Shown: in pieces, positions 2,334-21,212 of the stretch
How the letters are laid out: the number at the start of each line of letters is the position of its first letter
Position numbering within the stretch: the stretch's first letter is position 1
Assembly: GCA_963799845.1 (NCBI GenBank)
Contig: CAWCYI010000004.1
Span: 1,952,001-2,016,000 of the forward strand
DNA: 64,000 nucleotides
Reading direction: 5' to 3'
Source: an uncultured Nitrososphaerota archaeon
GTDB taxonomy: Archaea > Thermoproteota > Nitrososphaeria > Nitrososphaerales > CADDZS01
The notes under the pieces: model-generated
Databases searched by the model: none
The model's input: the letters and a program-made list of their open reading frames with translations, nothing else
Told to the model about the DNA's origin: nothing
Program-made: the position numbers and the translations under genes

Positions 2334-2935
2334 TTAGGTAAGTCCACGAAGATAACCCATCGTTGGAAATATAAAGCGCCCGCAGCTGTACAATTCTTGT
2401 ACAATGGATTAGACCGATTCGCGGATCGGCAGGTCCTAATCGGGAATATCGTTTCACATTGAGCGCGGACGCGATTCTATCCCCAGAGGAAGTAAAGAGC
2501 ATCGCCCAAAGAGTGCTCGCGATTGAACGGATTTTTCTCAGAAGGGGAGGTTTGTTTGGCATACTTTGTTTAGGTGAGAATGATGTGAATTTCCGACAGT
2601 TTGTGCTTACTAGGTGACATGATCGACCGTATTAAAGGAACGTAAAGCCACAGCCAAGCACATGTACGCAGCAATAGACTTGCACCAAAAAACTGTACAG
2701 TCAGTACTCAAGGATGAAGGGGGAAGGATAGAAAACGAGCTGAAGATCAACAAGGATGCAAAAAGCATACTCGAATTTCTTGATGGTACTGATGCTGAAA
2801 TAGTCATGGAGTCTGGTTACAACCACGAACACATCTATGATCTTCTAAAGGAGGAAGGATACGATGTCAAGGTAGCTCATCCATTGATGGTTAAGGCGAT
2901 CGCATACGCAAAAGTGAAAAATGACAAGGTAGACG

Positions 2936-4883
2936 GCGCGCCAAGGAATCTCTATGACTCGTGGACGTAAGTTCCACTCTGGGAATCGCAGGTTTGCCCA
3001 GATAGATTGGGGCACAGCTAGCGGAGCAATTCGCTGGCTGGAGCTGTCCTCAAATCAAATCCTCAGGCCGCAGCGCAAGCGAACTCGATGTAGCACCGTG
3101 AGGTCGGAGTGGGAAGGCCTAGCAAGTCGTCACTCTGCGAAGGCTAGAACTGCATCATCAGGTGTAATGCCTGTAGCCTGCGAGCATGCAGCTTCCCCGG
3201 TGTTGCAGGGGTGGCATGAGGAGAAAGCCATGGAGCCTAACTTGGGAGACCGGGTAGTGTCCATAGATGCTCTAACAACTAGGGCATCTTTGGTAGTGCT
3301 GCCTATAAGCTCGTTGAGCGAAATGGCGGCCGAAGCGCTGCACGGAGTCGGAAAGGCTAGTAGTATTCATGAGGGTGAGGACAGCACAACCTCGCACGAG
3401 AGAAGGAGCCTTACTTGTGTGCGTGACTGCTCAAAGTTCATGGACGAGTCCATTCTTCGCAAGAAGTAAGAGGTTGAAAGCTCGTAATTTGAAGCCCGTC
3501 GAAGAACTTCGTAGCAGTCTTTACCGAACAGCTGAAGGAGAACAAGGAAAGGAGATTCTACAGTCTAAAAGATAAAATCTGTCGGATCGATGTTTTGGAA
3601 GAAGCTTGGAAAAGAGTCAGAGCAAACAAAGGTGTGGAAGGAATCGACAACGAGACAATCGAGGACATAGAAAGGAGAGGAGTTGATGAATTCCTCTCGC
3701 GGCTACAGCAAGAACTCAAGGACGAAACATACAAAGTTCAGTGCGTCAGGAGAGTTTTCATTCCCAAACCGAATGGGAAGAAAAGACCTCTTGGTATCCC
3801 AACTGTAAGGGACAGGGTAGTTCAACAGGCGGTCAGATTAATCATCGAGCCGATATTCGAAGCTGATTTCCAAGATTTCAGCTACGGATACAGATCGCAC
3901 AGGTCGGCAAGAGATGCAAGCTTGGCAATCTACAGGTGCCTAAACTTCGGTCTTACGAACGTCATCGATGTTGACATCGAAGCGTTCTTCGACCACATAG
4001 ACCATTCAAAACTAATCTCCTTTGTCAAGGAGCGAGTCACAGACGGATACATCATCAAACTCGTCAGGGAATGGCTCAGGGCAGGCGTCGTCTACATGGG
4101 TGAAACGACTTATCCGAATGAGGGGACTCCTCAGGGTGGAGTCATCTCGCCTCTTCTAGCCAACATCTATCTCAACAAACTCGACGCAGCATGGACGGAG
4201 CTGAAGATGAACAGCAGATACAAGTACAATTCTCAGCTCGTTAGATACGCCGATGACATTGTAATCTTCACAGACAGGAGTTATGCAGGAAACATCATGA
4301 GGTTTCTCTCGGAATTTCTTTCCTCATATCTTGGACTCGAGCTGCGCGAGGACAAATCCAGAATCACTACAGCAAAGGAAGGATTTGATTTCCTTGGATT
4401 TCACTTCTTGAGAAGATTTGAGTTCAGGAAGGGGAAGGAAGTAACCAGATTCTTCCCGTCCAAAGCTACCGTGCGAAAGTTCAGGGACAAGGTTAGGGAG
4501 CTAACTGCAAGGGGTGTCACTCACGTCAAGGATGAAAGGCAGCTAGCCAAGGAACTGAACTTGCTCATTGTAGGATGGACTAACTACTTCAACCACTCTA
4601 ATGCCTCAGAAACATACGGAGACTTGCAGCACTACGTCGAATGGAAGTTCAGGCAATTCATACGCTTCAAACATCAGATTCGCAGATTGTCAGCCAGATA
4701 TGATGGCTTCGATCAGCCCTCTCAATTTGGCTTGAAATCTCTAGCGGGTAGAATCTCGTACGTAACTTGGGAGCCGTACGCTCTTCGGTGAAGCACCTCG
4801 GTAAGCTGTGTGAGGGAAAACTTCACGCACAGTTTGATGTGGGAGGGGGAGGATTGAAAACAAAATCCTCTCTTTCACCCAAC
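2936..4883 (+). mobile_element. Group II intron (ribozyme plus RT/maturase ORF)
   Basis: 5' GCGCG (variant of GUGYG), 3' ...CCCAAC; domain V AAGCTGTGTGAGGGAAAACTTCACGCACAGTTT at about 4804-4836 followed by a domain VI hairpin; exact excision restores the transposase frame. Confidence 0.92.
3489..4791 (+). CDS. ltrA: Group II intron reverse transcriptase/maturase without endonuclease domain; N-terminus frameshifted at about 3534
   Basis: RPLGIPTVRDRVVQ, GTPQGGVISPLLANIYL, RYADD, GFDFLGF, domain X GWTNYF; upstream LRSSLYRTA|KENKERRFYSLKDKI joins if one base is removed. Confidence 0.92.
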
Positions 4884-5594
4884 CAAGGACACTTGCAGAT
4901 CTACTGAGACTGGACATGATACCGGAGTGCTACATCCCCAGCCAAGAGATAAGAGAAGTAAGAGACCTGGCAAGGAGGAGACATTATTTCGTCTCGACAA
5001 GAACGATGTTCAAAAACAAAATCCATGCAGAGCTCAGCAGGAGATGGATTGATTACAGTAAAGATCTCTTCACGCAGACTGGGATGGACCATCTAAAATC
5101 GCTTCATATCGCAGCGGTAAATGACTACCTCGACTCAATTCAGTTCCTCGATGAGAAGATACGAGAGCTTGACGGCCAAATCAAGGAAAAGCTCTTGGCG
5201 ACAAATATGCGAAGCTCCTTGTGACGGTGCCAGGAATATCCTACTACGGTGCGCTGCTGATTTCAAGCGAGATTGCAGACATCAACAGATTCCCAGACCC
5301 AGAACACCTGTGCTCCTATGCAAAACTGGCACCCGGAACTCATCAATCGGGAGAGACACAATACCAGAAAGCAGATCGTAACAAGGGCAATCACATGCTC
5401 AACTGGATATTGATCCAGTGTGCTCACATACACGTCCTAAACTGCAACTCGTCGATTACTGGGCATTACAACAGGATCAAGGAAACGAGGGGAAACAAGA
5501 TCGCCATCGTCGCAGCAGCAAGAAAACTGACGTGCGCAATCTACATGATGCTGAAGGAAGAAAGAGCCTTCAGGCTGGACGGCTAAAACCATAA

Positions 5595-5741
5595 ACTGGG
5601 CTCGAGAATTTACTGCATCTTCAGGATGCGTTTACTAGGATGAGCCAAAGGCAATAAGCGAAAGCCACAATGCTCTTTTGGAGCGAATGGGAGTATGCTC
5701 GTCCAGCATGACAAAAGAGATATTAAGAAATGTAGCCCAGT
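5595..5741 (+). ncRNA. Putative bridge RNA/seekRNA of the IS110 element
   Basis: Internal loop with GAATTTACT (5606-5614) and TTTACTAG (5631-5638) around stem GCATC/GATGC matches both strands of the target; second loop carries ATGGGAG (5687-5693), identical to the IS right end. Confidence 0.8.
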
Positions 5742-5750
5742 CGACATGGG

Positions 5751-5880
5751 AGTAAATACGTGTCCGAATCTCGTTACATGACCGAGCTATCATCTTGAAA
5801 ATTTGGAAATAGGGGTTGTATTTTTACTAGTAAATTCGTGCGGGGGTCCCACAACTCGCACTCGGGATTTACTAGTAAAA
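5751..5880 (+). repeat. Palindromic repeat copy R2 (its left part lies at 2606-2613, split off by the IS110)
   Basis: AGTAAATACGTGTCCGAATC...ACCGAGCTATCATCTTGAA...TTTTTACTAGTAAATTCGTGCGGGGGTCCCACAACTCGCACTCGGGATTTACTAGTAAAA. Confidence 0.9.
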
Positions 5881-8983: not shown

Positions 8984-9028
8984 CACTCGGGCGTTAATTT
9001 TTACTAGTAAAGAGCGTAAATTTACGAG
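8984..9028 (+). repeat. Degenerate palindromic repeat copy R3
   Basis: CACTCGGG...TTTTTACTAGTAAA. Confidence 0.55.
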
Positions 9029-11064: not shown

Positions 11065-11216
11065 TTTTACTAGTAAATTCGTGCGCGAATCCGTTACCTA
11101 ACCGAGCTATCATCTTGAAGAGTTACAATAGGGCTTGGATTTTTACTAGTAAATTGGTGCGGGGGTCCCACATTCCGCGCTTGGAATTATCTGTCGGTTG
11201 GTTTTTACTAGTAAAT
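11065..11216 (+). repeat. Palindromic repeat copy R4 (three TTTTACTAGTAAA cores)
   Basis: Colinear with R2, including the spacer ACCGAGCTATCATCTTGAA and GTGCGGGGGTCCCACA. Confidence 0.9.
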
Positions 11217-21163: not shown

Positions 21164-21212
21164 GGGGTTGCATTTTTACTAGTAAATTCGTGCGGGGGTC
21201 CCACCCTCCGCA
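21164..21212 (+). repeat. Palindromic repeat copy R6, 3'-truncated, just upstream of the integrase
   Basis: GGGGTTGCATTTTTACTAGTAAATTCGTGCGGGGGTCCCAC, nearly identical to 5812-5852. Confidence 0.9.

Follow-up and report, generated by a model that had tools for sequence, protein, structure and literature searches.

Insertion sequences (IS) of the IS110 family provide the closest described parallels to the locus discussed here. IS621, a member of the IS110 group, relies on a bridge RNA with two loops, each carrying two arms that match opposite strands and share a core dinucleotide (Durrant 2024; Hiraizumi 2024). For the IS1111 group (ISEc11, ISPa11, ISKpn4), the cited passages describe a DEDD transposase with an L-P----SG motif and a long non-coding region downstream of its gene (PMC11187229; PMC11208160), sub-terminal inverted repeats with short terminal extensions, a repeated palindrome as the target, and seekRNAs in which the match to the top strand precedes that to the bottom strand in the 5'-3' direction, with an overlap between them in the target (PMC11187229); part of the same literature predicts bridge RNAs in 93.0% of the IS1111 elements held in ISfinder (Durrant et al., PMC11208160). 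Here we describe an element of this kind at positions 2614-5752 of a stretch of 64,000 nucleotides (nt; hereafter the window) from an uncultured archaeon of the order Nitrososphaerales (contig CAWCYI010000004.1, assembly GCA_963799845.1, positions 1,952,001 to 2,016,000). Its 3' non-coding region very probably encodes, on the transposase strand, a bridge/seekRNA of roughly 100-160 nt, the predicted design of which follows that of the IS621 bridge RNA and is closer still to that of IS1111-type seekRNAs.

The assignment of the element, on the + strand as are all its features given below, to the IS110 family with an IS1111-type layout, made in a preliminary description of this DNA, is confirmed by matches to Pfam and NCBI family models and by the sizes of the non-coding ends: 48 nt on the left and 166 nt after the stop codon in the window copy, so that the longer one follows the transposase gene, as in the IS1111 group. 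All the motifs that the preliminary description had listed were found in place. The element measures 3139 nt with a group II intron that splits the transposase gene and about 1.19 kb without it. Exon 1 (2662-2935) covers the DEDD/RuvC-like domain (PF01548, DEDD_Tnp_IS110; E 1.4e-6, the fragment scoring 28.6 bits against a cut-off of 29), and exon 2 (4884-5586) covers a coiled coil and, at the C-terminus (5221-5586), the Transposase_20 domain (PF02371, E 8.4e-18), with the L-P----SG motif present as KLAPGTHQSG (compare GL-P----S(t)G of IS1111). The closest copy of the element is found in a genome of the same genus, G063, and encodes an intact orthologue of 325 amino acids (aa) that reaches 214 bits, against a cut-off of 140, with the model NF033542 ('IS110 family RNA-guided transposase').

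The left end (2614-2661) begins GTGACATG and holds the sub-terminal inverted repeat CATGATCGAC (2618-2627), an A/T box, TATTAAA (2630-2636), that may be a TATA-like box, and the motif AAAGCCACAG (2644-2653). The right end (5740-5752) consists of the other sub-terminal repeat, GTCGACATG (5740-5748), followed by GG and the core AG (5751-5752), and thus reads CATGGG-AG just before the right target half. When CATGATCGAC is set against CATG-TCGAC, both begin at position 5 from the ends and 9 of 10 positions agree with a gap; 80 of 2000 shuffles score equally high, and an ATG.TCG core recurs in homologues. For comparison, the sub-terminal repeats of IS1111 elements measure 7-17 bp. Read from the sequence, the flanks are the left target half with the core, CTTACT-AG (2606-2613), in which TTACTAG is common to the left junctions of related copies, and the right target half TAAATACGTGTCCGAATC (5753-5770). 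The dinucleotide AG is present at both junctions, as expected of the core proposed for this element, and corresponds to CT on the other strand (compare IS621). This agrees with the IS110 family, whose members lack terminal inverted repeats and insert site-specifically, the two junctions having just a core dinucleotide in common.

The likeness to the IS1111 group in layout and motifs has its limits: the host is archaeal (Nitrososphaerales), the RNA matches no Rfam family, the transposase is 325 aa long, slightly less than the 330-350 aa of the group, and the inverted repeat is short and imperfect. The RNA of IS621, by contrast, comes from the left end, upstream of the gene, and has its arms in the reverse order; the IS621 protein is only a distant match to the transposase, in the N-terminal part alone (phmmer E 4.7e-8), and a sequence search of the Protein Data Bank yielded only distant N-terminal matches, to ISCro4 and IS621.

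The conserved core of the predicted RNA spans 5595-5710, where the covariance model described below (R1) scores 115.5 bits. Its putative target-binding loop (5599-5646) is closed by an outer stem, GGCTC (5599-5603) with GAGCC (5642-5646), and contains a 5' arm (5604-5614), a hairpin (5615-5629) with the inner stem GCATC (5615-5619) and GATGC (5625-5629), and a 3' arm (5630-5641). The predicted guide of the 5' arm, GAATTTACT (5606-5614), is complementary to the top strand AG+TAAATTC, whereas that of the 3' arm, TTTACTAG (5631-5638), has the same letters as the top strand TTTACT+AG. Compared with TTTACT-AG-TAAATTC, the two arms overlap at the core, and the match is perfect for the site occupied by another copy in this genome (c3, see below); the proposal that the arms spell both target strands thus holds. 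The order of the two matches along the RNA is the one reported for IS1111 seekRNAs (PMC11187229). That an 8-mer and a 9-mer spelling the target should flank one hairpin in 166 nt by chance is, by our own estimate, very unlikely; the comparison across the family, of structure and of guides with flanks, settles the point.

The genome (G000; 4.6 Mb, 9 contigs) contains, besides the window copy (c1), two intron-less copies on contig C6, c2 (903701-904902), 99-100% identical to c1, and c3 (961379-962589), 82-85% identical, as well as one left-end fragment on contig C1. A partial small-subunit rRNA on contig C1 is best matched by the archaeal model (776 bits), which outcompetes the other models of its clan. 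The coding sequences of c1 and c3 diverge by about 15%, but between 5595 and about 5710 the two copies hardly differ; across the loops, one change falls in a hairpin loop and another is a compensatory replacement of GCTC/GAGC by GTTC/GAAC. When the order was searched with the transposase C-terminus, 74 of the 401 genomes sampled yielded relatives, a tally that takes in one unpublished genome, G102. In the nearer relatives (54-88% identity) the 3' region has a common build: the outer stem, an 11-nt 5' arm, a hairpin and a 9-nt 3' arm ending in AG, then G(A/T)T, the outer stem again, a small hairpin, ..GCCACA(A/G)T, a hairpin and GAAT(G/A)GGAG. A covariance model built from nine relatives, R1, produced 34 matches, 28 of them distinct, in 8 of 151 sampled genomes of the order and in 8 of 10 genomes chosen individually.

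In a comparison of the kind suggested in the preliminary description, the structure covaries across homologues. On the R1 alignment, which was fitted to the same structure and hence favours it, 90.3% of the cells of four helices pair and 13 of the 17 base pairs have changed on both sides; none of 500 shuffles reaches these values, and slid controls pair in 24-44%. A MAFFT alignment of nine sequences supports the same structure, with 84.3% pairing and 6 pairs changed on both sides compared with 2.3 expected. G-U or U-G pairs occupy 21 of the 465 cells of the R1 alignment and would be A-C mismatches on the other strand, and we therefore read the RNA on the + strand. An Rfam search of the 3' region returned no family, either at the gathering cut-off or at E up to 10.

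Within the R1 alignment the target arms vary most, and they follow the sites at which the elements reside. In every guide class, the 7 nt next to the core were compared with the flanks of the class's own elements and with those of the other classes, with 100,000 permutations; 32 rows yielded 8 left and 16 right classes after classes without an automatically found end motif or left end had been dropped. For c1, G072 and one G230 copy, the left flank was identified by eye, outside the automatic table. On the left, guides agree with cognate flanks at 4.63 of 7 positions and with non-cognate flanks at 2.20 of 7 (8 classes, p about 8e-5); on the right, where the best of two registers was taken for controls too, the figures are 4.69 and 3.46 of 7 (16 classes, p about 1.3e-4). 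Examples of 3' arms and the left flanks beside them are TTTGACAG with cTTGACAG, AATTATAG with tATTATAG and CATCTGTAG with gcTCTGTAG. Guides therefore covary with targets across homologues, as the preliminary description had required of a guide RNA.

Two loci add to the picture of these modules. In genome G230 (locus L130, 1460-1990; contig C2, about 227.5-228.0 kb), a 177-nt 3' module is present as three tandem copies, the repeated unit reaching from just after GGAACAG in the 3' end of the element's own transposase gene to the right end. At the module junctions the right end is followed by ACCTTCAGG, the same letters that follow GGAACAG in the native gene (GGAACAG|ACCTTC), and GGAACAG makes up the last 7 of the 8 letters of the 3' guide of this element, TGGAACAG; the tandem modules may thus have arisen by recombination at a self-target. 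A comparable case is ISPpu9 of Pseudomonas putida, an IS110-family element residing in repetitive extragenic palindromes, whose downstream RNA module, Ssr9, is described in the cited portion of the source as able to multiply by itself, in modular circles; ISPpu9 differs in being bacterial and in that Ssr9 is reported there to be dispensable for transposition (PMC12288879). Separately, a stretch of about 40 kb on contig C1 of G094 (about 704-745 kb; L099, L106, L110, L113) holds four or more copies of the RNA module. One subtype among them has target arms that misfit its flank, while sharing both right end and flank with the other subtype, which suggests chimeras or recombination between elements.

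The insertion site of sister copies had been chosen beforehand as a check capable of overturning this reading. All five left junctions read TTACTAG|: those of c1, c2, c3 and the C1 fragment (GTGCTTACTAG|, TCTTTTACTAG|, TTATTTACTAG| and GAGTTACTAG|, respectively) and that of the G063 copy (GGGCTTACTAG|). Likewise, all five right junctions read AG|(T/C)AAA, namely AG|TAAATAC, AG|TAAAATC and AG|TAAATTC for c1, c2 and c3, AG|TAAAAAT for locus L177, and AG|CAAATTCGTGCGGGGG for L185, where the junction adjoins a 20-nt right-end remnant. The c3 copy occupies the canonical repeat, TTTACTAG/TAAATTCGTGCGGGGGTCCCAC. At L185 (139-200, from a Thaumarchaeota metagenome-assembled genome) the remnant borders the canonical repeat half CAAATTCGTGCGGGGGTCCCAC and the rest of the element is absent; we read it as the scar of an old insertion or deletion in another genome with the repeat family.

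The target belongs to a palindromic multicopy repeat, as had been claimed: the 12-mer TTTACTAGTAAA occurs exactly 40 times in the genome compared with 0.41 expected from composition, and 9 times in the window with at most one mismatch compared with 0.12 expected, a count that none of 100 shuffles reaches. The perfect 15-nt target is found 14 times in the genome, 7 in each orientation. The rebuilt empty site of c1 agrees with the reverse complement of 610-635 at all but 2 of 26 positions. Nearer still is a paralogue of the site without an insertion, at 11065-11124, in which family D2 spans 11065-11092 and family D4 aligns 5772-5804 with 11092-11124 (88%). Unoccupied perfect targets in the window lie at 5823-5837 (TTTACTAGTAAATTC, 71 nt from the element), 11066-11080 and 21175-21189. 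The repeat unit itself is about 57 nt long, TTTACTAGTAAA-TTCGTGCGGGGGTCCCAC..CGCACTCGGGA-TTTACTAGTAAA, often with the palindrome at both ends; it is seen in the window at 546-557, 5823-5879, 9000-9011, 11066-11215 and 21175-21186, and its copies group into a small number of regions on contigs C4, C6 and C7. A variant with the sequence GGGGTTCAAATCCCAC resembles a tRNA T-arm; ARAGORN found no tRNA genes in the window. IS621, too, reportedly targets a repeat, the repetitive extragenic palindrome.

The second predicted loop, for donor binding (5664-5693), encloses a hairpin (5672-5684; inner stem GCTC, 5672-5675, with GAGC, 5681-5684) between a 5' arm, GCCACAAT (5664-5671), and a 3' arm, GAATGGGAG (5685-5693). 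The equality of a donor arm and the right end, noted from the outset, is borne out: ATGGGAG at 5687-5693 is identical to the last 7 nt of the element (5746-5752), and the family arm GAAT(G/A)GGAG tracks the right end CAT(G/A)GGAG at its one variable position, with A in both for G338, G320 and G287; the exception is L106, which is apparently chimeric. The other arm was rightly described as weak. Of its GCCAC (5664-5668), no more than CAC can pair with GTG in the left end, and the sub-terminal inverted repeats and the protein therefore probably contribute to recognition of the ends. Right-donor pairing is likewise weak or discontiguous in IS621, and multi-loop donor sites are reported for IS1111 elements in the cited part of Durrant et al. 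(PMC11208160). The word AAAGCCACA(G/A) stands both at 2644-2653, between the TATA-like box and the start codon, and at 5661-5670, in the donor 5' arm, and is kept at both places in all close homologues. The two copies cannot pair together because they have the same sense; AAAGCCACA is possibly a shared protein-binding word.

From the anatomy of the element, its site specificity, the conserved RNA structure and the covariation of guides with flanks established by these comparisons, a mechanism can be outlined by analogy with IS621 and ISEc11, in which the RNA would be expressed, processed and bound by the recombinase, and the element would pass through a circular intermediate to strand exchange. 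The two arms of the target loop would pair with the target in a way that overlaps at the AG core; the donor 3' arm AAUGGGAG would pair likewise with the right end and core of the circularised element, and the donor 5' arm with nothing more than GTG of the left end. The DEDD recombinase would then exchange strands at AG, and the element would thereby enter TTTACT-AG-TAAAT within the multicopy palindromic repeat.

Several observations, together with the fitting of the R1 alignment mentioned above and with the gene lesions, empty targets and competing fold considered below, weigh against this reading. Folding of the single sequence gives a weak z-score and does not discriminate between strands (z -2.36 on the + strand and -2.55 on the - strand). 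Some cognate flanks match poorly: 1 of 7 for the right flank of G142, 3 of 7 for the right flanks of G320 and G094B2, and 3 of 7 for the left flank of G287. The core complement in the 5' arm occurs in two registers, beside the hairpin in c1, G287 and G039a and 1 nt off in most others. Finally, the donor 5' arm is constant (GCCAC) though the left ends vary (GTGAC, GTGGG, GTGCA, GTGAA), so that at most 3-4 nt pair (CAC/GTG or CCAC/GTGG), with the core unmatched.

A first alternative, which we treat as a tentative possibility, accepts the RNA-guided system and holds that it worked in an ancestor, the three copies in this genome being fossils that no longer move. All three assembled copies have lesions in the transposase gene: compared by tblastn with the intact G063 orthologue, c2 has 1 frameshift, c1 the same frameshift plus the intron, and c3 3 frameshifts. 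Moreover, only three copies are present in a genome with 14 perfect targets, and no joint of right end to left end was reported in the soil contigs, though contigs are not expected to show one. However, the frameshift shared by c1 and c2 consists of 1 nt in a run of four A (5187-5190) in exon 2, and a contig from run X1 of a 2024 soil metagenome, otherwise identical over 826 nt, carries one extra A behind 5186 (depth 14.8/14.8), giving the in-frame reading ..IKEKALGDKYAKLLVTVPG..; because this A restores the frame, the shared frameshift is probably an assembly error in a homopolymer or a polymorphism. On this point we correct the preliminary description. The comparison covered DNA contigs from four runs of one soil study, and since X1 may be the genome's source sample, it does not amount to independent evidence of the organism. 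Also against the fossil explanation, c1 and c2 are 99-100% identical at different sites and therefore moved recently, the loops are visibly constrained between c1 and c3, and a group II intron can be removed from the RNA by splicing. If 5187-5190 is indeed a homopolymer error, other genes of the 9-contig assembly may hold false frameshifts as well, which may contribute to its completeness estimate of 86.7%.

The intron of c1 had been recognised from the start as a group II intron, and Rfam matches, matches to reverse transcriptase/maturase models and the intron-less alleles agree. It is 1948 nt long (2936-4883), with boundaries fixed by the intron-less genomic copies and by the joint 2935->4884 in contigs of soil runs X1 and X4. 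RF02003 (D1-D4) matches at 2959-3078 and RF00029 (domains V/VI) at 4801-4883, and an open reading frame at 3595-4791 encodes the reverse transcriptase (RT)/maturase (RVT_1 and GIIM; TIGR04416, 398.6 bits, cut-off 300). The intron interrupts a codon after the catalytic motif, KNDKVD|A, and is present in a single copy in the genome. Members of the TIGR04416 RT family were found in 13 of the 401 sampled genomes of the order, 10 of them above the cut-off, and such introns are thus present but uncommon in Nitrososphaerales.

A second alternative concerns the fold and leaves the RNA and its function as proposed: the guide arms would lie in a multi-branch loop closed by the helix 5595-5602/5734-5741 and by a donor-enclosing helix, 5638-5645/5697-5704, in place of the outer stem 5599-5603/5642-5646, or else the RNA would switch between folds. 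The long-range helix, formed by ACTGGGCT (5595-5602) and AGCCCAGT (5734-5741), had been put forward in the preliminary description as closing the whole RNA. It and the outer stem are mutually exclusive because both use 5599-5602. The minimum-energy fold of the 166 nt of c1 lacks the outer stem and includes both rival helices, at -45.6 kcal/mol compared with -39.8 when the outer stem is forced; RNAalifold on 11 sequences also picked 5638-5645/5697-5704, a helix that covaries in part of the family as well; alignment A3, made with MAFFT, shows it paired in 90.3% of cells and has two-sided changes at 2 of its pairs. On the other side, the long-range helix has no counterpart in G230, G218, G094 and G199 and the donor-enclosing helix is poor in G094 and absent in G199 (sequences read by eye), and the former pairs in only 69% of cells on A3. 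In a wider alignment, fitted to the internal-loop stem, that stem pairs in 90% with 5 of 5 pairs changed on both sides, whereas the two segments of the enclosing helix reach 72% and 90%, and 3 of its 8 pairs show two-sided changes; in addition, the first 56 nt alone fold into the internal loop. Across the family, the outer stem 5599-5603/5642-5646 is thus the better supported, the closing helix is not conserved, and we consider the multi-branch or alternating fold unlikely.

A more elaborate version of the alternation, in which the Nitrososphaerales elements make up a clade of compact bridge recombinases (about 325 aa) and their RNA switches between two states, seems to us improbable. It draws on the covariation of 5642-5645 with two partners, 5600-5603, which would close the target loop, or the partner inside 5638-5645/5697-5704, which would enclose the donor module; the alternation could order donor loading and target loading, and AAAGCCACA, in the RNA and before the start codon, might couple the RNA or the protein to control of the element's own promoter. 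The last explanation, that protein or DNA-DNA contacts read the site and that the target-like words in the 3' region are by-products such as captured pieces of target, could appeal to the palindromic nature of the target, in which short matches are easier to find, and to the dispensability of Ssr9 reported in part of PMC12288879, but it is highly improbable given that the arms differ between elements and follow each one's own flanks, that their positions are fixed within a structure that compensatory changes and one-strand G-U pairs preserve, and that the same design has been shown experimentally to guide IS621 and four IS1111-type elements (cited portions of PMC11208160 and PMC11187229).

Applied to 32 further IS110-family loci, either bacterial or belonging to other thaumarchaeal subfamilies, R1 gave no more than two weak matches, L006 (26.1 bits) and L005 (21.9 bits). 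An 18-nt right-end pattern recovered 28 stretches in a scan of genomes, of which only L177 and the L185 remnant are related and the rest are due to chance, and 40 stretches in a scan of metagenomes, none of them a true relative. The closest named IS found belongs to the ISHvo9 family of haloarchaea (Haloferax volcanii pHV4), with 36% aa identity over the whole transposase; R1 found nothing convincing at the ISHvo9 locus, the best match (9.9 bits) being on the opposite strand and upstream of the gene, and Siddiquee et al. give no consensus target for Hvo9 in the cited part of their paper (PMC11187229). Downstream of transposases 42-47% identical to that of the window (L072-L087), we noticed a second, different 3' non-coding family with two loops closed by TGAGGG..CCTCG, unmatched by R1. 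Words in it like GAATGGGTAA or GTATGGATA return at the end of the element as CACATGG(G/A)TA; this region is probably another bridge RNA family.

The mechanism considered here was already described in 2024, archaeal IS110 recombinases have been surveyed, with 662 counted according to part of a preprint (10.1101/2024.06.21.599552), and archaeal IS, ISHvo10 and Hvo9, are included in the published set of Siddiquee et al. (cited part of PMC11187229). Our literature search on archaeal and haloarchaeal IS110/IS1111 elements found no archaeal bridge RNA described, although Supplementary Table 5 and Data 2 of Durrant et al. and the supplementary figures of Siddiquee et al. may list some. The finding leaves the picture of how such elements work unchanged and will not surprise a specialist. 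What it offers is a set of at least 28 distinct predicted RNAs from an archaeal order, with directly readable guides and a small recombinase, and with many natural guide programmes, such as TTTACTAG, TTTGACAG, AATTATAG and CATCTGTAG. To our knowledge, the bridge/seekRNA recombinases tested so far are all bacterial, and we know of no genetic tools for the ammonia-oxidising and related Nitrososphaerales, for which reason a native programmable recombinase would be of practical interest. The elements would also bring archaeal examples to bear on the relationship of IS110 recombinases to archaeal Nop5.

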